Below, piece by piece: positions 3,137 to 62,872 of a DNA stretch of 64,000 bases. A program made the position numbers and the translations under genes. Under the pieces are notes generated by a model. The model did no database searches, had not been told where the DNA came from, and saw only the letters and a list, made by a program, of their open reading frames with translations. Within the stretch, counting starts at the first letter, position 1. Every line of letters begins with the position of its first letter. The DNA is from Candidatus Woesearchaeota archaeon (lineage in GTDB: Archaea > Nanobdellota > Nanobdellia > Woesearchaeales > JAZDKJ01), in contig JAZDKJ010000012.1 in assembly GCA_043803105.1 (NCBI GenBank), forward strand, positions 23,337 through 87,336, given 5' to 3'.

Positions 3137-5152
3137 ATGCCTCTTTACAAGAAAGCCTTCAGTTCTGTGATGATGGAGGTTGTTGTCCTTATCCTGGTGG
3201 TAGTTGTCATCCTAGCTTCCGGAAAATGGACTTATTCTATGGCATCCTCTCTGTTTGGCAACAAGCAAGGCACTGTGGAGAGCTTTGAGATTGTCTCAAA
3301 GAGTATGCAGGCTCTTGCCAATAGTCAGACTGTTTTTGCCTCTGACAATGCAAACCTCATGATTTTGCAGGATAGTTATGTGATTGTTGGTTTTGACAAA
3401 ACTGAGCAAAAGTCTGTGAGTTCCTGCGAGAGCCGCGAGGCCCAAAAGCCTCCTGTCTGTGCTGGTAGCGCCTGCATCTGCCTTTTCAAATTTGATGCAC
3501 TTGATAAGCCTGTGCAGTGCACAATCCTCTATAATGTTGACCGGGTCTTCACAATCAATTATGATTCTGATTACAGCAGCCGTTTTAAGGTTCCTGAAGC
3601 CTATAGCTTCAACTCCCTAGGCTCACAAGCATACATTTTCAATGACAACTACAAATCATCTTTTTCCTCCACAATTCAAGGAGTGTCAAATCCTGCAGTT
3701 AGCTATTCGCATCTTTTCCTCTTTGGCAATTGCCCGAATGAGCATATTTCCAGAAGTTTTGCAGCCCATAACTTTTACATTGAGAAGTTTGTCGACGCCA
3801 CGCAGAAGAAGACCTATTTCCTTGTTGCCTATGCTGATGAATTTACCATTGCGCACTCTGAGGAGATAAGAAAGAAGTTCGGCTCAAAGAGTCCTGCCGA
3901 GTACGAAAAGCTGATTTCCGAGCTTCTTGCGTCAAAAAATCCTGAGCAGGCTGTTGCAAAGTTCTCTGAGTTCAAGGCAGCTTATCCGCTCGCAAATCTT
4001 TCAAATGCAACTTACCAAAAGCTTTTGCAGTACCTTCTTCCAAAGACCTCAAAAGAGGAGTTGGCCATAGCCTTGCAGATTGTTGATGATTATCTCAAGT
4101 TCTTTCCTAATGATGACAAGACTCAGGAGATGCTCTATAATCAGGGCTTGTTTAACATGCTTCTTGATGATGTTGATGCAGCTAAGGAGTCATTTGACAA
4201 GGTTATTGAGACTAATGCCAAGTCTGAACTGGCAAAAAAGGCTGAAGACATGCTGGACGCTGTCTCAATCATAAAAGAAGATCCCGGCCTCACAGGCGAG
4301 TCAAGCCAGGCTACAATTAAGAGGTTAACTGAGGAGATTTCATCAGAAAAGGATGATTCCAAGCTCGGCGAGCTCCATTATGGGCTTGGTGTTGCTTACC
4401 TTGTCGCAAATATTAGGTCACGCTCAACCATTTATCCAAGAGATCTTGCAGTAAACGAGTTTGCTACAGTAATCTCAAAATATCCTGTAAGCGAGTATGC
4501 TGATGTTTCTTGCTACAATCTCGGCCTTGTCTACAGCTCTTTGGCTGAACAAAATGAAAAAGACCATCAAAAGGCTTGTGAATATTTCGCTAAAGTTTAC
4601 CAGGATTACCCCTTTGGCAAGTCTGTCTTTAATGAGGACTTGAGCACTCTTGCTGCTGACAAAATCAAAAGGTTTGACTGCAATGTGGACGAGTATGATA
4701 CATTTGATTCTTCTTCATATACAGAACCTGCTCCTTCTGACGTTTCAACTGATGTCTTAGACCCAAAACTTCAAGGCCTCACTCCTGAGACTGTTGAGGA
4801 CGTCAAGAAATTGCAGACTGCATTGAATGCTAAGTTTGTTATTCATGAGGGCTACGCAACCACCGGCCATCTGCCTGGCTCACTTCATTATGTAGGCAAG
4901 GCAGTTGACTTTCACATCACTGGAACAAGCCTAACATATCTCGAGCAGATCGATGCAATGAATCAAGCACTCATTGGTTTAAAAATTGCAGACAACGGCT
5001 TTGGTATCTATCCTGATTGGCGTAATCCTGGCTTTCACTTCGATACCCGTGGCAAGGTTGCAAGATGGGGCTGGCTCAGCAAGCATGAGGTCTCTTATCA
5101 GGCTGCTCTGGATTACGCAAAGGCGCATGCACCAGCAACTGCTGTTGGCTAG
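3137..5152 (+). CDS. membrane-anchored protein with central TPR-like helical repeats and a C-terminal peptidase M15 (YcbK/MepK-like, Peptidase_M15_3) domain
   Basis: C-terminus HEGYATTGHLPGSLHYVGKAVDFH ... NGFGIYPDWRNPGFHFDTRG matches the zinc-binding SxHxxGxAxD and GxGxY...FxHxDxR motifs of M15A/M15_3 peptidases; N-terminus MPLYKKAFSSVMMEVVVLILVVVVIL. Confidence 0.65.
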   Translation: MPLYKKAFSSVMMEVVVLILVVVVILASGKWTYSMASSLFGNKQGTVESFEIVSKSMQALANSQTVFASDNANLMILQDSYVIVGFDKTEQKSVSSCESREAQKPPVCAGSACICLFKFDALDKPVQCTILYNVDRVFTINYDSDYSSRFKVPEAYSFNSLGSQAYIFNDNYKSSFSSTIQGVSNPAVSYSHLFLFGNCPNEHISRSFAAHNFYIEKFVDATQKKTYFLVAYADEFTIAHSEEIRKKFGSKSPAEYEKLISELLASKNPEQAVAKFSEFKAAYPLANLSNATYQKLLQYLLPKTSKEELAIALQIVDDYLKFFPNDDKTQEMLYNQGLFNMLLDDVDAAKESFDKVIETNAKSELAKKAEDMLDAVSIIKEDPGLTGESSQATIKRLTEEISSEKDDSKLGELHYGLGVAYLVANIRSRSTIYPRDLAVNEFATVISKYPVSEYADVSCYNLGLVYSSLAEQNEKDHQKACEYFAKVYQDYPFGKSVFNEDLSTLAADKIKRFDCNVDEYDTFDSSSYTEPAPSDVSTDVLDPKLQGLTPETVEDVKKLQTALNAKFVIHEGYATTGHLPGSLHYVGKAVDFHITGTSLTYLEQIDAMNQALIGLKIADNGFGIYPDWRNPGFHFDTRGKVARWGWLSKHEVSYQAALDYAKAHAPATAVG

Positions 5153-46206: not shown

Positions 46207-46551
46207 GGTAGGATAGGAGCTTAGCTCTCGCAAAATTGTGAGGAAAGTCCGCCCACACATAGCAAAGGTTGCGGATTTCGTGACCCTCGCTAGGAACTGG
46301 CCACTCTTCGGAGGTCCCGAAAGGGGCGGCTACTGAACAGAAACGAAACGGCCCATTGCACTGGAATGAGGCAGAAAACGTCCTGGTGACAGGATCGAGC
46401 TAACCTGCCGACGACGCTTTGGGATTCGGTGGAACGGCAAGCCCTGGCTTGTGCAAGTCGAAAAGACGCTTAGTTGAATGCTAAGACAGACCATCGCTTT
46501 GTTTTTCGCAAAGTTTGGGTCTGACAGAAGGCGGCTTATTTCTATCCTACC
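46207..46551 (+). ncRNA. rnpB: RNase P RNA
   Basis: GAGGAAAGUCCGCCCACAC (P4 region), ACAGAAACGAAACGG motif, terminal P1 helix GGUAGGAUAG...CUAUCCUACC. Confidence 0.75.
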
Positions 46552-48745: not shown

Positions 48746-49726
48746 ATGCAAAATATTGACCGAGACCTGATATTTCTTTACTCTGAGAACCTGAGGCAAA
48801 GGCTGACAGACCTTTCCTCTTTGCTAAAAAAAAGCCCTCAGAGGCTGAGGTATTCCTTGAAAACATTTGAGGATGAGCGTTTTCTGCACAACCCGCATTG
48901 TATTTTTGACTATTCTTATTTTGGCCTTATCCTCTTCAGGGTCTACTTTAAGGGAGGTTACATAAGCGAAAAAGACAAGACGGGCATCATCAAGGAGCTC
49001 ACCCTTAGCCCTTATGTTGTTTCTGTTTACGAGCTCAGCGGTGAGTTTGATTTGTCTATCGAGTTAATAGCCCCCAATCCCTCCAAGTTCAACAAGGAAT
49101 TTAAGAAATTGACTTATCTTATTCCCACACTAAATAATTACAAGGTCCTGCTCAATGTCGTCACTCACATCTATCCTAGGTTCTACCTGACAAAGAATAA
49201 TCTCATAAGGCAGAGGGTCCAGCACGAAATAATTGTTGGCGGTGATAGGACTGTTGTCTCTTTCAAAGAGTCAGAATTAGAGTTGATAAAACATATCCTC
49301 TTTAATCCAAAGGCAAGGATGACCTCGCTTGCTAAGGATGCATCTCTCAACAGGACTACCGCCCTTTCTGTTTTCAAGAAATTGATAAGAAAGCGAATAA
49401 TCAAGGGTTTTAAGTATTTTGTAAATACCAATGCTCTGGGTATCTTTCGTTTTCGGCTTTTTCTCAAGCTGCACAATCTTAGCCAGGAGCGTGAGACAGA
49501 GTTTATGGCTTATCTTTCTAAGGTAGATGAGGTGGTGCAGGTAAATAAGACAGTTGGGGATTGGGACATTGAGATTGACATCGAAAGCTTTAGCAAGGCC
49601 ACAGTGCGTTCGATTATCATCGGGCTTCGTGAGCAATTTAGCGACTTGATCGAGACTTTCAACAGCATTGAATTCTATCAATCATACAAGAAAGCATTTC
49701 TTCCCACCTATTTGTTTGAATCATGA
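48746..49726 (+). CDS. fused tandem Lrp/AsnC-like protein (two HTH + RAM-domain modules)
   Basis: Two successive segments each with an N-terminal HTH-like region and a RAM-like beta-alpha-beta region (LILFRVYFKGG...VYELSGEFDLSIELIA; ALGIFRFRLFLKLHN...VGDWDIEIDIES). Confidence 0.45.
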   Translation: MQNIDRDLIFLYSENLRQRLTDLSSLLKKSPQRLRYSLKTFEDERFLHNPHCIFDYSYFGLILFRVYFKGGYISEKDKTGIIKELTLSPYVVSVYELSGEFDLSIELIAPNPSKFNKEFKKLTYLIPTLNNYKVLLNVVTHIYPRFYLTKNNLIRQRVQHEIIVGGDRTVVSFKESELELIKHILFNPKARMTSLAKDASLNRTTALSVFKKLIRKRIIKGFKYFVNTNALGIFRFRLFLKLHNLSQERETEFMAYLSKVDEVVQVNKTVGDWDIEIDIESFSKATVRSIIIGLREQFSDLIETFNSIEFYQSYKKAFLPTYLFES

Positions 49727-50229
49727 CAACATTTTTAAACTCTTTTTGCCTTATAGTGCCCATGGAAAAGTTTGAGGATTCTTTTCTTAAGGCAAAGCGT
49801 CACCTGCAGATCGCTGACCACATGGTTTACGTGACCTATGGCTTGGTGAAAGACCCCAGGCTTTTGCTCTCAGTTCTTGACAATGTTTTTCTCGCCTTCA
49901 CCAATTCCATGTCCTCCATTCTGCACTATGAAAACTTATTTAAACGAGTGCCTCCTTTTCCTGATAACTTTGAGGCAAAGTTTGCCTTGTTTAGGGAATC
50001 CTGCCTCTCAAGGTACAACATACATAAGGACTATCTTCCCTTGATGCGCGAGCTTAAGGGATTGATTGTTGCGCACAAGAAAAGCCCTGTCGAGTTCGCG
50101 AGAAATGATCGCTTTGTCATCTGTTCGGATGATTACCGGATGCAGGTCATTTCTGTCGAGCAAATCAAGTGTTATGTTGCCCAGGCAAAATTGTTTATCC
50201 AGGATATAAGCGTGATTATCAAAAGATGA
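49723..50229 (+). CDS. hypothetical protein, paralog A of a tandem pair
   Basis: KAKRHLQIADHMVYVTYGL parallels P2 KRADHLIYVSLKY. Confidence 0.45.
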   Translation: MTTFLNSFCLIVPMEKFEDSFLKAKRHLQIADHMVYVTYGLVKDPRLLLSVLDNVFLAFTNSMSSILHYENLFKRVPPFPDNFEAKFALFRESCLSRYNIHKDYLPLMRELKGLIVAHKKSPVEFARNDRFVICSDDYRMQVISVEQIKCYVAQAKLFIQDISVIIKR

Positions 50230-50678
50230 GAGAAGTTTTGGGCGAAGCTAACGAGGAGTTGAAGCGGGCTGACCATCTTATTTATGTTAGCCTAAAGTAT
50301 ACGAGAAGTGTTGATGTAATTAAGAGTGTGTTTGAGCGTCTTATCAATGCATATAGCATAGTCTTTCGAGGTCTTCTTGTCAAAGCCAAGGAGAAAAAAC
50401 TTCTTGCACAGATTCCTACCTCTCCCGGTAGCCAATGTGACTTGGTAAGGGAAATTTACAGGGATGATCTGGAGCTGCTTGATTATATCAAGTTTTATCT
50501 TCTCCTGCGCAAGATGGATCAAGGAAAATTCACTCGGGCGCATGAGTTTCGGCGAAATGTGACTATGACAGTCACTGTGGACAATAAGCAGATGGAAGTC
50601 AACATAGACATTGTCACTGAATATTATAAGCGTTCACTGAAATTTTTGGAATATGCAAAGGAGCGTTTCCTCAGGTAG
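50226..50678 (+). CDS. hypothetical protein, paralog B (start at internal ATG MREVLGE)
   Basis: Paralogy to 49723..50229; 4-nt overlap arrangement. Confidence 0.45.
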   Translation: MREVLGEANEELKRADHLIYVSLKYTRSVDVIKSVFERLINAYSIVFRGLLVKAKEKKLLAQIPTSPGSQCDLVREIYRDDLELLDYIKFYLLLRKMDQGKFTRAHEFRRNVTMTVTVDNKQMEVNIDIVTEYYKRSLKFLEYAKERFLR

Positions 50679-50681
50679 ACA

Positions 50682-51128
50682 ATGCAAAATCGTCTGCGGC
50701 GAAAGGGTTGGTCATCAACTGATCTTGCCAAATTGGATAAATATTCTGTCAAGCGCCTGCATTTGTTTTGGATTGTAATTATTTCTGCAGTTCTGGTTAA
50801 CATGGTTTTGGCCTTTGTTTTTATCCCTGTGTTTCTGGGTCTAAAGAATGTCCCAATGTTTGCTCTGGTTATTGCAACTGGTGTCTGCTTTGGCCTTTTG
50901 TTCTTCAACCTCTTGAGGAATGTCGATGTGTTTACTTATCGTCATCATCTCGCTGTCGCGATTGTGCCAGCATTTGCTGCAGTCTCAATTTTCTTCTCGA
51001 GCGAGATCGCCAATTCAGTTGCGCCACTTCTGCATAGCATCCGCCATTCATCTGTTATGCTCGGTTTGTTGTACGCCTTTAGCTTTGAGCTGCCCATTTT
51101 CATTGGCTTTCTTTACATCAAGGATTGA
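50682..51128 (+). CDS. hypothetical 4-TM membrane protein
   Basis: ORF track; hydrophobic. Confidence 0.45.
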   Translation: MQNRLRRKGWSSTDLAKLDKYSVKRLHLFWIVIISAVLVNMVLAFVFIPVFLGLKNVPMFALVIATGVCFGLLFFNLLRNVDVFTYRHHLAVAIVPAFAAVSIFFSSEIANSVAPLLHSIRHSSVMLGLLYAFSFELPIFIGFLYIKD

Positions 51129-51159
51129 GCGCAATCTTTATAATCTGTTTTGTTTCTCG

Positions 51160-51375
51160 AGTCCTTTGTGGCGGCCATGGTGTATCCCGGCAGCATAAGG
51201 GACTGTGGCGCTTTGCATAGACATCCCTTGGAGCGGGTTCAAAGGAGCTGAAAAGTCAGCTCGCACCTTCGTTCCACCTTCGGTGGAGTTGCCTGTTAGG
51301 CAACAGAGGTTGCAGAGCTTTTCAGATGTGAAAATCCCGCTGGCCGCCCTCTTTACCACAACCTTTTTAAAGGAC
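51160..51375 (+). ncRNA. candidate structured RNA of unknown class (long imperfect hairpin with two apical stem-loops), strand uncertain
   Basis: GC-rich, ORF-poor island; GUGGCGGCC...GGCCGCC, AGCGGG...CCCGCU, CUGAAAAG...CUUUUCAG pairings; apical CCACC-UUC-GGUGG and GUUGCC-UGUUA-GGCAAC hairpins. Confidence 0.3.
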
Positions 51376-51463
51376 TGCCAGTTTTTTCAGGTTATAAGCC
51401 CGAGTGCAGTTGTCTGTGCGTCCTTAGGGCAAGCGTGATAGCTTGTTCTCGGCACTTTTGATA

Positions 51464-51949
51464 ATGGAACCCAACTTCAAGCACATTGTCCGTATCATCA
51501 ATACTGACCTTAATGGCAACAAGCAGATTTTGTATGCCTTAAGGAAAATCAAGGGTGTTAATACTGTCATGGCCAACGCAATTCTTTTTGCCGCAGGTAT
51601 TGCCAAAGACAAGCGCACTGGTTTGTTAAGCGATATGGAGATTCGTACTATTGATGACGTCTTGAAAAATCCGGCAAAGCACAATCTTCCAAGCTGGCTC
51701 TACAATCGAAGAAAGGACCCTGAGACTGGTAATGACCGGTATCTTGTTGGTACTGATGTTGCTTTTGTCAAGGATAATGATATAAAGAAGATGAAGATGA
51801 TTCGCTGTTACAAGGGCTTCCGCCATATGGCTGGTTTGCCTGCAAGGGGTCAGCGCACCAAGGCCAATTTCAGAAGGACTAAAAGCAGGGGCAAGGGCGG
51901 TAGTCTTGGTGTTGTGAAGCGCGCTGGCGCAAAGCAAGGTCGTGGTTGA
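51464..51949 (+). CDS. rps13: 30S ribosomal protein S13 (uS13)
   Basis: FKHIVRIINTDLNGNKQILYALRKIKGVN... Confidence 0.9.
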   Translation: MEPNFKHIVRIINTDLNGNKQILYALRKIKGVNTVMANAILFAAGIAKDKRTGLLSDMEIRTIDDVLKNPAKHNLPSWLYNRRKDPETGNDRYLVGTDVAFVKDNDIKKMKMIRCYKGFRHMAGLPARGQRTKANFRRTKSRGKGGSLGVVKRAGAKQGRG

Positions 51950-52536
51950 AAATGGGAGACATAAAAAAGCAAAGGAAGAAGTTTGACAAGCCATTTCATC
52001 CCTGGCAGAAAGCCCGCCTTGATACTGAATCTGTTGTTGTCAAGGAGTATGCCTTGAAGAACAAGAAGGAGTTGTGGAAGATGCAGTCTAGGCTCAAGCA
52101 TTTCACAAGTCAGGCAAAGAAGCTTACCCCTGGTTTGAGGGGGGAGACTGAAAGGAATCTTCTCTTGTCAAGCTTAAGAAACCTTGGTGTGGTCAGCGAC
52201 TCCGCAACCATAGATGATGTCCTGAACCTTACGCTCAAGGATATTTTGGAAAAGAGGTTGCAGACATTTGTCTTTCGTAAGGGCTTTTCTCGTTCGATGA
52301 AACAAGCACGCCAATTCATTGTGCACAAGCATGTAATGGTTGGCTCAAAGGTTGTTGGCGTGCCTTCCTATCTGGTCTTGAAATCAGAAGAGTCTGCGAT
52401 TAGCTTCAGGGAATCCTCTGCACTCGCTTCAGTTGACCATCCAGAGCGCGTCGCAAAGACCGAGCCTAAAGAGAAAAAGGTCCAGCCTAAAAAGGAGCCT
52501 GTAAAGAGAAAGCCGAGGCAGGAGAAGAAACAATGA
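51946..52536 (+). CDS. rps4: 30S ribosomal protein S4 (uS4)
   Basis: [43 protein letters not shown]. Confidence 0.9.
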
Positions 52537-52931
52537 GAACAGACAGTACTCGATGGGGTGTAGCTCACATTTATTCATCTTTCAATAATACTATTATCCA
52601 TATTACTGATATTACAGGTACAGAAACCATAGCCAAGGCATCTGGCGGCATGATGGTTAAGGCTGACAGGATGGAATCAAGCCCTACCGCTGCAATGATG
52701 GCTGCAAAAAAGGCTGCTGAGGCTGCTCTTGAGAAAGGAATCAACGGAATTCATGTGAAGATTCGCGCTCCAGGAGGCCATAACGGCCCAAGCAGCCCAG
52801 GACCTGGTGCTCAAGCTGCGATCAGGGCGCTGTCTCGAATGGGTCTTCGCATTGGCACTATTGAGGATGTAACCACAATTCCTCATGATGGCTGTCGCAA
52901 GAAAGGGGGAAAAAGGGGGAGGAGAGTATGA
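52533..52931 (+). CDS. rps11: 30S ribosomal protein S11 (uS11)
   Basis: [37 protein letters not shown]. Confidence 0.9.
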
Positions 52932-53728
52932 TTGACATCTCTTTGCTTGATTATGACAAGAAGAATGAGAAATGCTCTTTTTTGATTAAGGGAGCTGATT
53001 TTTCATTTGTTAACTCCATTAGGCGCTGCATTGTTGATTTTGTTCCCACCATGGCAATAGAGGACGTTGAGTTTCACAAGAATAGTTCTGTGCTGTATGA
53101 TGAGATTATTGCGCACAGGCTTGGGCTAATTCCCTTGGAGACTGATCTTAAGACTTATAATCTGCCAAGCAAGTGCAAGTGCAACGGCGCAGGATGTGCC
53201 AGGTGTACTCTAAAGCTTTCGCTTAAGGCAAAAGGCCCGGGTATCGCTGATGCCTCTCTATTGAAGTCCAAGGACCCTAAGGTCAAGCCTGTCTTTTCCG
53301 CCACCCCAATTGTCAAGCTGCTCAAAGGCCAGGAGCTTGAGTTTGAAGCAACTGCAGTCCTTGGTTTTGGAAAAGAGCATGCCAAGTGGTCTCCAGGTTT
53401 GGCTTACTACAAGAACAAGCCTGTCATCGAGATGTTGAAGAAGTGCGATAAGTGCGATATCTGTGTCAAGGATTGCCCGCAAAAGATTTTCGAGGTGAAG
53501 GGCAATAGCGTTGAATTGAACAAGGATAATGTTAACAAGTGTGACCTTTGTGGTGCGTGTTTTGAGCACTGCCCGAAGGGTGTCATACGCATTGGTGAAA
53601 AAGAGGATGAGTACATTTTTAACATCGAGTCTTGGGGTCAGCTCTCCTGCAAGGAGATTGTCAAGGAAGCTGCCGACTGTTTTGACAGCCTGCTCGATGA
53701 TTTGCTTGATAAACTAAAAGAGATGTAG
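52928..53728 (+). CDS. rpoD: DNA-directed RNA polymerase subunit D (Rpo3) with two 4Fe-4S cysteine motifs
   Basis: Position after S11; [12 protein letters not shown] and [12 protein letters not shown]. Confidence 0.85.
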
Positions 53729-53731
53729 TTT

Positions 53732-53829
53732 GCGAGGGTGCCGGAGTGGCCAAACGGGCTAGGTTGAGGTTTGGTTAGCAAAAGCCTAGTGGCTTAGTGC
53801 CTGCGCGAGTTCGAACCTCGTCCCTCGCA
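53732..53829 (+). tRNA. tRNA-Leu (anticodon GAG) with about 14-nt intron adjacent to the anticodon loop and long variable arm
   Basis: Acceptor GCGAGGG/CCCUCGC + A73; D stem CCG/CGG; anticodon stem CUAGG/CCUAG enclosing UUGAGG...; T arm GCGAG-UUCGAAC-CUCGU. Confidence 0.75.
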
Positions 53830-53925
53830 TAATGGGTGTTTCGCCTGGGGCGAAGCGGCCACTGAAAGTGGCCTGAAGGTGTCAACGGACTTGGCCGTTG
53901 GTTCCCGAACCTCGTCCCTCGCATA
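53812..53925 (+). repeat. direct repeat of the tRNA-Leu 3' end (CGAACCTCGTCCCTCGCATA at 53812-53831 and 53906-53925) flanking a 75-nt hairpin-rich spacer
   Basis: Exact 20-nt duplication seen in sequence; spacer contains three hairpins (UUCGCC/GGCGAA, GGCCAC/GUGGCC, CAACGG/CCGUUG). Confidence 0.6.
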
Positions 53926-53930
53926 GCAAG

Positions 53931-54473
53931 ATGGAAATCGTTTTGAAACCGAATGTCACGAAAATATTGGTGTGGAGTATAATGAAAACCTTGAGCGGAA
54001 CAATTGTGATTGTTGGTCTGGTTGCCTTAGTTGTCTACATGGGAGGCTTTGGTTTCCCTGCAGCAATAGAATACCTAAGCTCCAGCATTGGACTCTCAAA
54101 GCTAGTTCAAGGTCTAGTGCTTGCATTCTCATTGGTTACCATTTTGATTATTGCGCTTACCTTTCTTGGTCTTCCAACCAGGAAGGTTATTGCTTCTGAT
54201 GTTAAGCTCAAGGCTGACAATCGTGACGTGCCTTACGATAATGTGGCAAGGATCAACTTTGACAGGACGAATCTTCTTGATCAGCTTCTTGGCACAGGAC
54301 GCGTGGTTTTTGAATTGACAGGCTTTGACAGGCAGAAGATTGAGGTTGGTTTTGTTGACAATCCAAAGGACCTTACCATAAAGATTCAGCAGTTGTTGAA
54401 CATTTTCAAGATGAGAAAGTTTGCCCAGTTTGCAGACCAGCAAAGGATTGAGAGGATAGTGCAAGACTTTTAA
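53931..54473 (+). CDS. membrane protein (bacterial PH-domain/YdbS-like), apparently inserted between tRNA-Leu and L18e
   Basis: Two N-terminal TM helices then soluble domain; start moved to ATG 53931. Confidence 0.45.
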   Translation: MEIVLKPNVTKILVWSIMKTLSGTIVIVGLVALVVYMGGFGFPAAIEYLSSSIGLSKLVQGLVLAFSLVTILIIALTFLGLPTRKVIASDVKLKADNRDVPYDNVARINFDRTNLLDQLLGTGRVVFELTGFDRQKIEVGFVDNPKDLTIKIQQLLNIFKMRKFAQFADQQRIERIVQDF

Positions 54474-54474
54474 C

Positions 54475-54837
54475 ATGAAACGTACCGGACCTTCAAACCC
54501 TGAACTGCAGAAGCTTATCATAGACTTGAGAAGGATTTCCCACAAGGAGAATTCTGATATATGGACTAGGATTGCCTCTGACCTTCAGAAGTCCACAAGG
54601 TCAAGGCGTGTTGTAAATCTCTCCCGTATTAACCGCTATTCATCTGACAATGATACTGTCATTGTTCCTGGCAAGGTGCTTTCTTCAGGCAGCTTAAGCC
54701 ACAAAGTGCATGTTGCAGCCTTTTCTTTTTCAGCCGCAGCCCGCGAGTCCATATTGTCTAGCAAGGGCTCTGCCTTGTCTATCCAGGAACTGATCAAGCA
54801 GAATCCCAAGGGCAAGAATGTGAGGATTATAGGATGA
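54475..54837 (+). CDS. rpl18e: 50S ribosomal protein L18e (eL18)
   Basis: MKRTGPSNPELQKLIIDLRRISHKENSDIWTRIASDLQKSTRSRRVVNLSRINRY. Confidence 0.8.
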   Translation: MKRTGPSNPELQKLIIDLRRISHKENSDIWTRIASDLQKSTRSRRVVNLSRINRYSSDNDTVIVPGKVLSSGSLSHKVHVAAFSFSAAARESILSSKGSALSIQELIKQNPKGKNVRIIG

Positions 54838-55247
54838 AGATCGACGCAGAAAATCTCTTGCTGGGAAGGTTTGCCGCACGTGCTGCAAAGTCTGCCTTGC
54901 TCGGAGAGGATGTGCAGATAATTAACTGCGACAAGGCAGTGGTGAGCGGCCGCAGGCTTTACGTGTTCCAGCAATACTTGAGGAGAAAAAGGATGGGAAC
55001 TCACAGGAAAGGCCCATTTTACTTCACAGCTCCTGACCGGTTTGTCAAGAGGACCATTAGGGGAATGCTACCTCATCGTCAGGAAAAAGGCAGGCTTGCC
55101 TTAAAGCGAATAATGTGCTATTCAGGCGTTCCAGTCTCTATGAAGAAGGAAGATTTTCATGCTGTTAAATCTGCCCACGTGGCTAAGCTTAACAGCACTA
55201 AGTTTGTGTCTGTCAGGCAGATATGCTCTGCCATGGGTGGAAAATGA
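54834..55247 (+). CDS. rpl13: 50S ribosomal protein L13 (uL13)
   Basis: MKIDAENLLLGRFAARAAKSALLGEDVQIINCDKAVVSG. Confidence 0.85.
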   Translation: MKIDAENLLLGRFAARAAKSALLGEDVQIINCDKAVVSGRRLYVFQQYLRRKRMGTHRKGPFYFTAPDRFVKRTIRGMLPHRQEKGRLALKRIMCYSGVPVSMKKEDFHAVKSAHVAKLNSTKFVSVRQICSAMGGK

Positions 55248-55639
55248 AGACTATTCATGTTTCAGGCAAAAGGAAGAGCGCAATCGCGCGCGCAACATTG
55301 AACGAAGGCAATGGCTCTGTCAGGGTCAACCACCTGATGGTTGATGTGTTCGAGCCTGAAGTCTGCAGGATGAAGCTCTTTGAGCCCTTGCTGCTTGCCG
55401 GCGACACTGTAAAGAAGGTCAATATTGATGTTGTTGTCTTTGGTGGAGGCATGACAAGTCAGGCTGAGGCAGCGCGCCTTGCCATTGCCCGTGCACTGTC
55501 AGCTTATGACAAGAAGTTAGAGGATGTGTTCTCGAAATATGACAGGCATCTTCTGGTTGCTGATGTCAGGAGAAAGGAGACCCACAAGCCTAATCGTCAT
55601 GGCAAGGCTCGTGCAAAGACCCAGAAGTCTTACCGTTAA
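55244..55639 (+). CDS. rps9: 30S ribosomal protein S9 (uS9)
   Basis: MKTIHVSGKRKSAIARA...RRKETHKPNRHGKARAKTQKSYR; ATGA overlap with L13. Confidence 0.85.
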   Translation: MKTIHVSGKRKSAIARATLNEGNGSVRVNHLMVDVFEPEVCRMKLFEPLLLAGDTVKKVNIDVVVFGGGMTSQAEAARLAIARALSAYDKKLEDVFSKYDRHLLVADVRRKETHKPNRHGKARAKTQKSYR

Positions 55640-55660
55640 TCAATAACTATAAAAACACAG

Positions 55661-57019
55661 ATGCCTCTTGTGCCTCTGATGAAGGTAAGCGATTTAACAA
55701 CTAATCCTAGGAAGGCCCTGTTGATTCTTAGCTGGCCAATTGTTGTCAGTATGCTTATCCAGGTTATGTACAACATTGTTGATACTGCTTTTGTTGGCCG
55801 CCTTGGTTCTGATGCAATCGCTGCCTTGACATTTGCCTTTCCTCTTTTCATACTGATGGTTGCCATTACCTCAGGTCTTGGTGCTGGCTACAATGCATTG
55901 ATTTCTCGCTTTGTAGGCTCAAAGAAAGTCAAGAGCGCTCAGAATGCTGCTTTGCATGCATTGCTTATTTCTATTGTAGCTTCCATCATTTTCGCTTTCT
56001 TAGGCCTTATTTTTTTGCGGCCGTTGTTCATGTTTTTTGGTGCAAAGGGTAATGTTCTCGAGCTAGGTATTGCCTTTATGAGCATCATATTTGCTTTTAG
56101 CCCGCTGATGTTTGTTTCCTACGCGATTACATCTTTTTTCACTGCTGTCGGTGATACAAAGACCTCCATGAAGATTCAGGTCACCTCCCTTGTTGTAAAT
56201 ATTATCCTTGACCCAATTCTTATCTTTGGCCTTCACCTTGGTGTCAGGGGTGCAGCCCTTGCCACAGCTGCAGCTTACCTGGTGTCTCTGGGCCTTGGGA
56301 TCTATTTTTCCTACTGCAAGTCCTGCAAGGAAAAGAATCTTGTGAGGCTACGCGTTGCCAGCTGGAGTTTCTCCCCATCAATTCTGAAAAGTATTTTTAT
56401 TGTCGGCTTTCCCGCCACGCTGATGAACTTTATCCTTTCTGTCTATGTTGTCATTATCAACATGTTCATGTCGCATTTTGGCACTGATTATGTTGCAGCC
56501 TTTGGTCTTGGCTCAAGGCTTGAGAGTCTTGCTGTTCTTCCATTTGTTGGTGTCAGTTTTTCCATGCTTACACTTGTTGCAATGTTTATTGGTGCTAAGA
56601 AGCATAAGGAGCTCAAGAATTTTGTGTGGTATGGGATTCGCATCTCAGTGATTCTTTCTTCTGCGATAGGTGTTGTCTTCTTTTTTTTATCTGGCTTCTT
56701 TTTCAGGATTTTTACCTCTGATCCAGTGCTTATCTCCCTCTCCACTGCTTACATGCGAATTGACGTCCTGACCTTTCCACTCATGGCCATTGGCTTCACA
56801 GTTGCTAGGATTATTCAGGCTATGGGTGACGGTTTTGCAGGCTTGGTTGTAACCTTGACCCGGGTCTTGTTTGTTTTTGTGCCCGTTTCCTACTTTTTTG
56901 TTTTTGTGCTAGGTTATGGGTTCTTGAGCGTAGCCTTCTCTATGGTGATAGGAGGTATTGTCTCAAATATTGTTGGTCTTATTTGGTTAAGGAAGAAGAT
57001 GAAGGGTTTTGACCATTAG
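55661..57019 (+). CDS. MATE family efflux transporter
   Basis: 12 TM helices, 452 aa, MATE N-terminus ([29 protein letters not shown]). Confidence 0.75.
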
Positions 57020-57770
57020 CCTTGTAAGCTATGAGGAACCAGTCCCACATCTTGTTCTCTCCTGGAAAGTCGTCGTGGCTGCTTATCTCCTGTCCCCATG
57101 GGTAAAGCACCTTTCGAAATTTTATTTTCGAGAATCCTGCTTTTTTCAATAGATAAATCAATTCGAACTTGTAGAAGTATTTTTGCTCTTGGTTTGGCTC
57201 TTCAGCGTAGATGCCTCTTATGAAGTCATATTTTTGCTCCTCAAATATCTCTCCAGTTTTTTTTCGTGCAGCCTTCTCCCCCATGCTTCCTAGTTCCCTG
57301 TTCATTATGAGCATTGACAGGTATATGAGTGACTCCATTGACGGGAATATTGCCACAAGGTAGCCTCCTTTTTTTAGTGAGTTGTACACCTGTGCAAGCA
57401 TTTGTCTTACGTCGCTCACTGATGGCCCGAGTATTGAGTTGATTGCAACAACCACATCAAACTGTTCCTCACACCCTGACAGGTTTTTCATATCCTTGCT
57501 TGCAAACACTATGTTCTCCTGCTGGTTGTTTTTCCTTGCTATCTCAAGCATCTTGCTCGAGAAATCTATTGCGTGCACCTGTTTGAAATTCTCTGACAAA
57601 AAGCCCAGTTGTTCTCCTGTCCCGCATCCAAGGTCTGCTATCACCTTGTTTTTTGTCTCAGGTATGCTGAGAAGAATGCCCTTTATCGGGTTCTTTACCC
57701 CTTCCTGGAATGGGCTTATGATCTCTTCATGGTATTTTGAAGCCACCTTGTCCCATTCTCTGCGAAGCAT
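56979..57770 (-). CDS. class I SAM-dependent methyltransferase
   Basis: [16 protein letters not shown] motif I; [10 protein letters not shown] motif. Confidence 0.7.
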
Positions 57771-57875
57771 TATTGCAACTGAAACGGCATCATATAAATC
57801 TCTTTCCTTTAATTACTGTTGTTTTGTTGTGGACTCGTAACCTTTATAAACCCGCCACCAATCCTGTGCTCTGTA

Positions 57876-58073
57876 ATGATTATACCCATTAGATGCTGGA
57901 GTTGCGGTAAGCCTGTAGCACATCTTTGGGAGATCTACAAGGAGCGTGTCGCAAAGGGTGAGGAAAGAAAGAAGGTTCTTGATGATCTTGGCCTTGAGCG
58001 TTATTGCTGCAGGGCAACCTTCCTTGGCCAGATTGACTTGATTGATACTGCAGCCCAGTTCAAGAAGTTTTGA
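57876..58073 (+). CDS. rpoN: DNA-directed RNA polymerase subunit N (Rpo10)
   Basis: MIIPIRCWSCGKPVAHLWEIY...YCCRATFLGQIDL with CxxC and CC zinc motifs; 65 aa from internal ATG. Confidence 0.8.
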   Translation: MIIPIRCWSCGKPVAHLWEIYKERVAKGEERKKVLDDLGLERYCCRATFLGQIDLIDTAAQFKKF

Positions 58074-61951: not shown

Positions 61952-62599
61952 ATGGTTAACATCAGTCATCTTGTCCGGGAATTTGTTGACCGCCAGCCCC
62001 TCCTGCAGGAGGCAATTATTGAGGGCATAGTCAATTTTGGTGCTCTTGCAGACCAGCTCAAGCCCAGGATTGAGAAGGAACTTTCCAGGAAGGTTAAGCA
62101 TTCTGCTGTTGTAATGGCCCTGCACAGGTATTCTGAAACATTGAAAAAGCCCTTTCCCAAAAAGTTTGACTATCGCTCCGAGATTATCATCAAGACCGGA
62201 ATATGCGACCTAATCCTTGTGAAGAGCCCTGAGCTTTTTGAGCGCCTGAAAAAGGCTTATGACCTTGTTGACTATAACAAGGGTGATACCCTGAACATTG
62301 TCCTTGGCAATTATGAGGTCTCCCTTGTTGTGAGCGAGCGTATTCTGGCCAGCCTGACTTCTTTGTTGCGTGATGTCAAGGTTATAAGTATAGAGCATGA
62401 CCTTGTTTCCATTGCCTTGCGTTTCAACGAAAAGTTTGTTACAACCCCTGGTGTTATTGCCAACATCACAAGAAAACTTAGTTGGAACAATGTGAATATT
62501 GTTGAGATTGTCTCTACGATGACTGAGCTAAGCGTAATAATTCATGAGAGAAATCTTACCCGCGCCTATAAAGTCCTCCAGGAATTAATAAGTGGGTAG
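61952..62599 (+). CDS. ACT-domain-containing putative regulatory protein
   Basis: Two beta-alpha-beta-beta-alpha-beta-like segments (IVLGNYEVSLVVSE; IVEIVSTMTELSVIIHE); weak. Confidence 0.4.
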   Translation: MVNISHLVREFVDRQPLLQEAIIEGIVNFGALADQLKPRIEKELSRKVKHSAVVMALHRYSETLKKPFPKKFDYRSEIIIKTGICDLILVKSPELFERLKKAYDLVDYNKGDTLNIVLGNYEVSLVVSERILASLTSLLRDVKVISIEHDLVSIALRFNEKFVTTPGVIANITRKLSWNNVNIVEIVSTMTELSVIIHERNLTRAYKVLQELISG

Positions 62600-62872
62600 G
62601 CATGCCCAAGAGTGGTTAGTTGCCTTATGCAAAAGTTTCCTTGATGCCTCCTCTGTTCCGCTACCCTTCAAGCACCAGTGTTAAAGGTTAAGGCTGCTAT
62701 GTTCCCATCCTGACCTAGTTCCCTAGATCACCAGCCCTGCAGGACAGAACATCACTGTCCGCGCCAAGACTCCTGCATATGACAGCTATCGCTTCCAAGG
62801 CTTCGGCCCCGCCATGAAGCCCGTGTGCGGTGACAGGAAAGGGCTAACTTCCCAGCCTAGCCTACCCATGGC
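62592..62872 (-). ncRNA. ffs: signal recognition particle RNA (7S/SRP RNA)
   Basis: On the minus strand: CUAGGUCAGGAUG-GGAA-CAUAGCAGCCUUAACC reproduces the helix-8 signature (GGUCAGG ... GNRA tetraloop ... AGCAGCC); closing terminal helix GGGUAGGC/GCCUACCC; 300-nt ORF-free GC-rich intergenic region. Confidence 0.55.

Follow-up and report, generated by a model that had tools for sequence, protein, structure and literature searches.

An inverted copy of a tRNA-His T-loop intron lies between duplicated tRNA-Leu 3' ends in a ribosomal protein operon of a woesearchaeote

Results

A tRNA-Leu gene with a repeated 3' end

This study concerns a stretch of 64,000 nucleotides of DNA (the window) from a member of the Woesearchaeota (DPANN), and within it a tRNA-Leu(GAG) gene whose 3' end recurs a short distance downstream, the two copies of this direct repeat (DR1 and DR2) enclosing a small spacer that we call X. 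The gene order at the locus is S13-S4-S11-RpoD-[tRNA-Leu]-[membrane protein]-L18e-L13-S9, followed by MatE, a methyltransferase, and RpoN. The position of tRNA-Leu(GAG) between rpoD and L18e is conserved in most of 160 related loci, and introns are frequent there. All loci compared come from metagenome-assembled genomes of Woesearchaeota or Nanoarchaeia; they are labeled L001 and so on, and the window itself is WIN. The features on which the analysis turns are as follows.

53732..53829, + strand: tRNA-Leu(GAG) gene, complete, its 3' end supplied by the proximal repeat copy
53770..53783, + strand: canonical 14-nt intron of tRNA-Leu at position 37/38, with a relaxed bulge-helix-bulge (BHB) motif
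53812..53831, + strand: DR1, the proximal repeat copy, from T-loop nt 56 to the discriminator base plus 2 trailer nt
53832..53905, + strand: spacer X, which copies a T-loop intron of the tRNA-His type in inverted orientation
53840-53854, 53857-53873, and 53883-53900, + strand: hairpins 1, 2, and 3 of X, from fold prediction
53874-53881, + strand: motif TGAAGGTG of X, between hairpins 2 and 3
53906..53925, + strand: DR2, the distal repeat copy, a displaced duplicate of the 3' exon, after which the original downstream flank begins
53931..54473, + strand: membrane-protein gene, 180 aa, starting 5 nt past DR2, no Pfam match
51170..51349, + strand: tRNA-His(GUG) gene with two introns, recognized by BLAST matches to the tRNA-His of relatives and by ARAGORN on the spliced sequence
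51209..51222, + strand: canonical 14-nt intron of tRNA-His at position 37/38 (BHB with 4/4 pairs in the central helix and an outer helix of 7 bp)
51244..51334, + strand: T-loop intron of tRNA-His, 91 nt, with its splice site after nt 59; X is its homologue in the opposite orientation

The tRNA-Leu gene reached 42 bits with the Rfam tRNA model in a local scan, and ARAGORN named it tRNA-Leu(gag) once the 14-nt intron had been removed in silico, although default ARAGORN and whole-window Rfam scans missed it; in E-value mode, the whole-window Rfam scan missed both tRNA-Leu and tRNA-His. In the BHB motif of the 14-nt intron, the central helix is 3/4 paired and the outer helix has 6 bp; the tRNA-Leu of L083 has no canonical intron, and its mature loop is TTGAGGG. 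The repeat consists of the last 18 nt of tRNA-Leu and 2 nt of the trailer. As a 20-mer, CGAACCTCGTCCCTCGCATA, it was found exactly twice in the window, while 100 dinucleotide shuffles gave 0 matches to it with up to 3 mismatches allowed, which bears out the statement of a preliminary description of this DNA that the 3' 20 nt of the tRNA recur exactly at 53906-53925. The start-to-start distance of the copies is 94 nt and the unique spacer between them is 74 nt, rather than the 75 nt given in that description. Because the repeat extends 2 nt beyond the discriminator base, it reflects a duplication of DNA and not only mimicry of a tRNA. The arrangement is that expected of an att duplication, namely a direct repeat of the 3' part of a tRNA gene with the intact tRNA at one border. 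X need not be removed for a functional tRNA, since tRNA-Leu is already complete with DR1.

Homology between the spacer and a reversed tRNA intron

The neighboring tRNA-His gene was undetected by ARAGORN, with or without its intron mode, and by Rfam, but it was named tRNA-His(gtg) by ARAGORN after in-silico splicing of both introns. It has a TATA-like box of its own, CTTTATAAT, upstream. Its T-loop intron shows a perfect relaxed BHB motif (TTCA/TGAA with 4/4 pairs, bulges AAG and AAT, and an outer helix of 6 bp) and is a resident copy of the element family to which X belongs.

The relationship between X and this intron was found with a covariance model for which only tRNA-Leu flank units were used, in their conserved 3' module of hairpin 2, the motif GAAGGTG, and hairpin 3. 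Beyond its training sequences, the model hits the minus strand of the window at 51241-51286 (46.4 bits, E 3e-9), which falls in the plus-strand tRNA-His gene; on X itself, it hits 53859-53905 with 51.8 bits. When the reverse complement of X was compared with the T-loop intron of the L001 tRNA-His, the local score was 54 against a null of 17.3 +/- 3.5 (z 10.4, 0/500 shuffles), and the comparison with the window's own T-loop intron gave z 4.8, whereas X in the sense orientation showed no signal against the tRNA-His introns (z 1.1 for L001 and 0.0 for the window). Read as its reverse complement, X aligns colinearly with the tRNA-His intron family along nearly all of its length. In addition, the first 29 nt of the window's tRNA-His intron are a 29/29 reverse complement of the tRNA-Leu unit of L141, despite the fact that the RpoD of L141 is only ~56% identical to that of the window. 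All-against-all BLAST of X, the introns, and the units returned only the links between the tRNA-His intron, L141, and L082_U3.

In an alignment of seven sequences, comprising five tRNA-Leu flank elements and two reverse-complemented tRNA-His introns, 91% of the cells of hairpins 2 and 3 are paired, and 13 cells in six pairs are changed on both sides; the covariation score of these hairpins is 0.495 compared with 0.158 in shuffles (0/500 as high). Hairpins 2 and 3 of X have been retained through compensatory changes in its homologous copies, while the fold of X taken alone is unexceptional (z -1.4). X is homologous to a bona fide intron, and the sequence evidence identifies it as an inverted copy from a family of hairpin-rich BHB introns that resides in the T-loop of the neighboring tRNA-His.

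The preliminary description had reported three short hairpins in the spacer and had held that no second tRNA can be folded from it, and we confirmed both statements: the hairpins lie at the positions listed above, and for a second or decayed tRNA copy in X, there was no Rfam or ARAGORN hit and a similarity to the tRNA body of only z <= 1.4. Its alternative suggestion of a small structured RNA was partly right: conservation of the hairpins is real, but it goes back to a tRNA intron, which the spacer reproduces in inverted form. Several other identities for X were tried and rejected. Among the Rfam 15 families, including C/D box small RNAs, only YrlA overlaps the spacer, at chance level (13.8 bits, E 6.9). 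A C/D box or K-turn in the region CTGAAAG...GAAGGTG was discarded, as the boxes are unconserved among four units and gave no Rfam hit. The 3' half of a split tRNA was discarded because the T arm is incomplete in the window. The complementarity of X and DR2 is at chance level (z 0.08), and the idea that they form a tRNA-like minihelix was therefore dropped for the window locus and its family.

Empty sites in close relatives and the membrane-protein gene

The four closest relatives, in which RpoD is 71-77% identical to that of the window, all have a homologous membrane-protein gene directly after the tRNA. In three of them (L081, L001, and L083), there is no duplication and the site is precisely empty, with the sequence after the tRNA aligning with the flank that follows DR2 in the window; relative to them, the window has gained exactly X and one copy of the repeat. 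L082 carries two units in tandem; a perfect copy of the tRNA 3' end, 21 nt long, closes the unit adjacent to the tRNA, and a decayed copy closes the distal one. L165 has a homologous hairpin-rich trailer in which only ~9 nt of the repeat are left.

The preliminary description had taken the membrane-protein gene for inserted, possibly as the cargo of an integrated element, and had proposed a comparison of the operon among relatives. This comparison contradicts the cargo reading: the gene lies outside the repeats, and it stands in the same place in L081, L001, and L083, where the duplication is absent. Homologues between tRNA-Leu and L18e are present in about 12 related loci (L081, L082, L083, L001, L025/L115, L030, L006, L085/L086, L165, L166, and L169), most of them without a duplication, and conservation of the protein in the operon was what that description had named as an observation that would tell against its proposal. 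In this subclade, the gene is an older, conserved member of the operon and lies outside the insertion. It does begin right after the second repeat copy, as reported, but it encodes 180 aa and not 181. The protein is V1837_07495 at NCBI, encoded on a 182-kb contig, where it is given as 163 aa; the conserved N-terminus of its homologues (MEI.IKPN..K) supports the upstream ATG at 53931 and hence the length of 180 aa. The family matches nothing in Pfam, is confined to a subset of Woesearchaeota, and is always located between tRNA-Leu and L18e.

The integrase proposed in the same context was not found either, as there is no Pfam integrase domain in the 14 neighboring open reading frames (ORFs) scanned at 49723-58073. 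Eleven of these encode ribosomal proteins, RNA polymerase subunits, MatE, or the methyltransferase, the other 3 have no Pfam match, and none is a recombinase. No attP-like copy was found in IMG/VR or in phage and plasmid collections, and X and the intron module are likewise absent from them, DPANN mobile elements being only sparsely covered in these collections; the IMG/VR matches to the repeat were chance hits in unrelated high-GC coding DNA.

Similar units at other tRNA genes

We counted a locus as duplicated when the 3' end of its tRNA (12 nt, <=1 mismatch) reappeared within 200 nt. Such a copy lies 58-121 nt downstream in 13/111 operon tRNA-Leu genes. The duplicated loci differ in tRNA sequence, and the repeat often reaches up to 12 nt into the trailer. 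Other tRNAs in the same loci, mostly tRNA-His, have a 3'-end copy in 9 of 50 cases. In some lineages, a segment of the unit is complementary to the copied end, giving a long hairpin that resembles the acceptor and T stems, and this complementarity is significant in L079, L145, L149, and the tRNA-His units of L028, L035, and L071. Literature searches found no description of such repeat-bounded units.

The downstream units of tRNA-His (L144, L064, L145, L028, L033, L035, L066, and L071) are 45-80 nt long and mutually homologous. They end in an exact copy of the cognate 3' end, which tracks lineage-specific changes of the tRNA, and their inner hairpin (..AAC CGCA GTT..) covaries. Mirror-image units occur upstream of tRNA-Leu in L022/L111 (~4861-4935), L097, L124, and L128, where a 12-23-nt copy of the tRNA 5' end, including leader, stands 58-116 nt upstream and is followed by a hairpin and a near-copy of the 3' strand. 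An exact tandem repeat with a 66-nt period and up to 110 nt repeated is present between rpoD and tRNA-Leu in L025 (~4823-4933) and L115.

Splicing competence

The 94-nt segment of the tRNA-Leu locus has no usable BHB motif at any of 21 equivalent splice positions, and there is none at the DR2 boundary. The best candidates had the T stem but 2/4 central pairs, or 4/4 central pairs but no flanking helices, compared with 3-4/4 central pairs and helices of 5-7 bp in control introns. A BHB intron bounded by the repeats was also rejected more widely, because none of the equivalent splice positions scanned in the window and 10 other loci was consistent with one. With no splice motif at its boundaries, X is predicted to be unspliceable.

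True T-loop introns of 30-89 nt, spliced after nt 59 with a relaxed BHB motif, are found in the tRNA-Leu of L012/L088, L020, L089, L108, L118, and L166, and the T-loop is therefore an insertion hot spot in this lineage. Across lineages, the same tRNA genes occur in two states, with either a spliceable T-loop intron or a flank insertion and a duplicated exon. D-loop introns also occur in the tRNA-Leu of L083/L169, L166, and L128. The canonical introns of L001 (101 nt) and L082 (~140 nt) are hairpin-rich and mutually homologous. The canonical introns of tRNA-Leu in L113/L114 and in L014, which belong to different lineages, share a 21-nt stretch that is 100% identical in inverted orientation, and this may possibly be another intron module flipped in orientation.

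Other genes and RNAs in the window

A second break in the conserved operon is located at 55661-57770, where a MatE transporter (+) and an S-adenosylmethionine-dependent methyltransferase (-) stand between S9 and RpoN. Three adjacent ORFs without Pfam match, two overlapping ones of 168-169 aa and one encoding a 148-aa membrane protein, lie at 49723-51128 directly upstream of the tRNA-His promoter. The window encodes an archaeal RNase P RNA at 46209-46549 (+), which scores 117.5 bits and contains large insertions compared with the model; the organism therefore has RNase P at its disposal for processing tRNA 5' ends. A signal recognition particle RNA was found at 62594-62867 (-) with 137.5 bits. 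In an exact protein look-up for strain-level variants, RpoD, L18e, and P0001 were not on record.

Discussion

The explanation that we favor, with a probability of roughly 60%, is that an intron-type hairpin element was copied in inverted orientation, at the DNA level, into the T-loop and 3' region of tRNA-Leu, and that the 3' exon was duplicated. The locus looks like a record of archaeal tRNA intron movement and not like the scar of the delivery of a membrane-protein gene. The element may have entered tRNA-Leu when template switching or recombination started at the T-loop sequence GTTCGAAC. This sequence is shared among tRNAs and identical to its reverse complement, which would account for the target as well as for the inverted orientation. 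If re-entry took place upstream of the exit point, the 3' exon would be duplicated; across loci, the left edge of the duplication lies in the T-loop and the right edge is variable within the trailer, as this model has it. Because an inverted intron is unspliceable, only those events that leave an intact copy of the tRNA would survive, and because the 3' exon is duplicated in the process, an intact tRNA remains upstream. The gradient in L082, with a perfect repeat nearest the tRNA and a decayed one distally, would fit repeated entry into the intact gene. In the cell, RNase P and tRNase Z would free tRNA-Leu from the operon transcript at the proximal copy, and the splicing endonuclease would remove the 14-nt intron. 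X and DR2 would be left as the 3' trailer and as the 5' leader of the downstream mRNA, for which a function of their own would not be required.

Several points weigh against this explanation. The mechanism is one that we infer, and the junctions appear to lack clean microhomology, with GTTCC on one side of the right junction and CGAAC on the other. The transfer could have run from tRNA-His to tRNA-Leu, in the reverse direction, or from a third copy. DR2 is 20/20 identical to DR1 while X differs by ~35-40% from L082_U2, which needs recent insertion, homogenization, or selection. In the tRNA-Leu flank copies themselves, hairpins 2 and 3 covary, which would fit a function in the trailer as well. 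Homology to introns was seen in the window family (WIN, L082, L141, and L165) and not in the other repeat-bounded units. DR2 may also not be inert: the predicted folding energy is -82.2 kcal/mol with the distal copy in the acceptor and T stems and -77.0 kcal/mol with the proximal copy, so that DR2 could displace DR1 thermodynamically in these stems, although co-transcriptional folding would probably favor the proximal copy.

Some of these observations could also be explained if X and DR2 formed a functional cis-acting RNA, whose hairpins protect the 5' end of the downstream mRNA after excision of the tRNA and in which DR2 serves as a second tRNA-like processing site for tRNase Z or RNase P. 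The membrane-protein mRNA, which is without a Shine-Dalgarno sequence, would then owe its 7-nt leader to processing at DR2. Compensatory changes maintain the hairpins in the tRNA-Leu flank copies, the sense strand has G-U pairs, the start codon lies 7-10 nt past the tRNA 3' end or its copy in the window, L081, and L082, DR2 is able to pair with tRNA 5' strands, and units of other lineages (the six with significant complementarity named above) pair with the distal copy as a hairpin like the acceptor and T stems. Nevertheless, we regard such a role, including the setting of the leader, as unlikely, because the same module serves as a discarded intron in the opposite orientation, because the unit is distributed patchily (it is absent in the closest relatives L081, L001, and L083), and because L082_U3, L031, and L165 retain the distal copy in decayed form or hardly at all. 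The chance-level complementarity of X and DR2 in the window family argues in the same direction, and a short leader is expected from any model that combines insertion and duplication. It is improbable that tRNA-Leu formerly held the element as a T-loop intron and that a fresh 3' exon was later placed upstream, either by tandem duplication of the intron and 3' exon or by break repair from an intronless allele, the old intron and exon thereby becoming trailer. This would agree with the occurrence of the T-loop intron and the repeat-bounded unit in the same genes of different lineages, and with a repeat whose left edge is in the T-loop and whose reach into the trailer varies; however, the spliceable tRNA-His copy has the opposite orientation, which would call for an additional inversion, and among 171 loci, no tRNA-Leu was found with the element as an intron.

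Integration of a virus or plasmid into tRNA-Leu, with DR1 and DR2 as attL and attR and X as the leftover after deletion of the element, seems quite improbable to us. The precise empty sites in relatives and the position of the newest L082 unit next to the tRNA are in keeping with it, and the extent of the repeat resembles the classic archaeal integration border, where direct repeats run from the T-loop past the tRNA 3' end (PMC3293823, PMC9897764). However, only 74 nt separate the repeats, and comparable units are all 37-105 nt long, which repeated independent deletions would not give. X is homologous to a tRNA intron and not to an element arm or an integrase gene, and the searches reported above revealed neither a recombinase among the 14 ORFs nor a matching attP or spacer in IMG/VR, phages, or plasmids, collections in which DPANN mobile elements are sparse. 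To our knowledge, DNA circles of 58-121 bp are also too small as recombination substrates, which counts further against such a scar. The att interpretation of the preliminary description holds in one respect, since the duplicated 3' end does bracket DNA that is inserted relative to close relatives, but an integrase with attL and attR and a membrane-gene cargo does not account for it. The view that the distal copy is the true 3' exon, and that 53812-53905 or an equivalent 94 nt is spliced out as a T-loop intron, is very improbable. True T-loop introns of 30-91 nt do exist in the lineage, the periods of the units (91-98 nt) resemble the 91-nt tRNA-His intron, and the long-range fold with the distal copy is slightly more stable. 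Against this, the BHB motif is absent at all the equivalent splice positions, and the proximal copy, which is the first to be transcribed, already makes the tRNA complete and offers a normal site for tRNase Z.

The intron-copy explanation can be compared with several known systems. Transposition of tRNA introns in the Thermoproteales, reportedly described by Fujishima et al. in 2010, is said to have left similar short BHB introns in distinct tRNA genes. The window is alike in that similar intron sequences occur in distinct tRNAs, here tRNA-His and tRNA-Leu, and at non-canonical positions such as the T-loop. However, the Thermoproteales type re-forms a BHB at its new site, whereas X has none, is inverted, lies outside the functional tRNA, is flanked by a duplicated 3' exon, and belongs to the Woesearchaeota (DPANN). 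In the tyrT locus of E. coli, studied by Egan and Landy in 1978, the repeats reportedly measure 178 bp, and each terminates in 19 bp of tRNA-Tyr 3' sequence. Common to both cases are downstream units that each end in a copy of the tRNA 3' end and are sometimes in tandem (here in L082 and L128), but the tyrT units are bacterial, longer, and unrelated to introns. Non-canonical archaeal T-loop introns are carried after nt 59 by the window's tRNA-His and by several tRNA-Leu, and X is homologous to one of them, but it neither needs nor permits splicing. As at the borders of SSV-type and pNOB8-type integrations, the proximal copy rebuilds the gene and the original flank follows the distal copy; those integrations enclose 1.8-23 kb and a recombinase, whereas the window encloses 74 nt of intron-derived DNA without a recombinase (PMC3293823, PMC9897764). 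Partial tRNA genes have been described at 9-23 kb of integrated DNA from the complete gene (PMC9897764), and Sugahara et al. linked integration to intron gain (PMC3293823). The combination of an inverted intron-derived insert of 74 nt, its place beyond the functional tRNA, an exon duplication, and no recombinase sets the locus apart from both of the closest systems, the Thermoproteales introns and the borders of integrated elements.

Standard tRNA finders miss both tRNA genes of the window, and therefore duplicated tRNA 3' ends in DPANN archaea should not be taken automatically for prophage borders. So far, similarity of sequence has been the sole ground for proposing that archaeal BHB introns transpose, with no mechanism offered. 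An inverted T-loop intron copy that sits just beyond another tRNA and duplicates its exon argues for a DNA-level route over reverse splicing, and the palindromic T-loop is indicated as the entry site. As a tentative extension, which we hold to be possible rather than probable, the short units bounded by duplicated tRNA ends across the Woesearchaeota may be frozen by-products of BHB-intron mobility. Introns would spread as DNA, in either orientation, with the palindromic T-loop (or D-loop) as the place of template switching or recombination, and the survivors would be either spliceable introns or unspliceable flank insertions rescued by duplication of the adjacent exon. The locus also provides intermediate states, open to testing, that lie between tRNA genes without introns, with introns, and in fragments. 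If true, this wider reading would explain in concrete mechanistic terms how introns are gained late and how tRNA gene fragments and split tRNAs originate.

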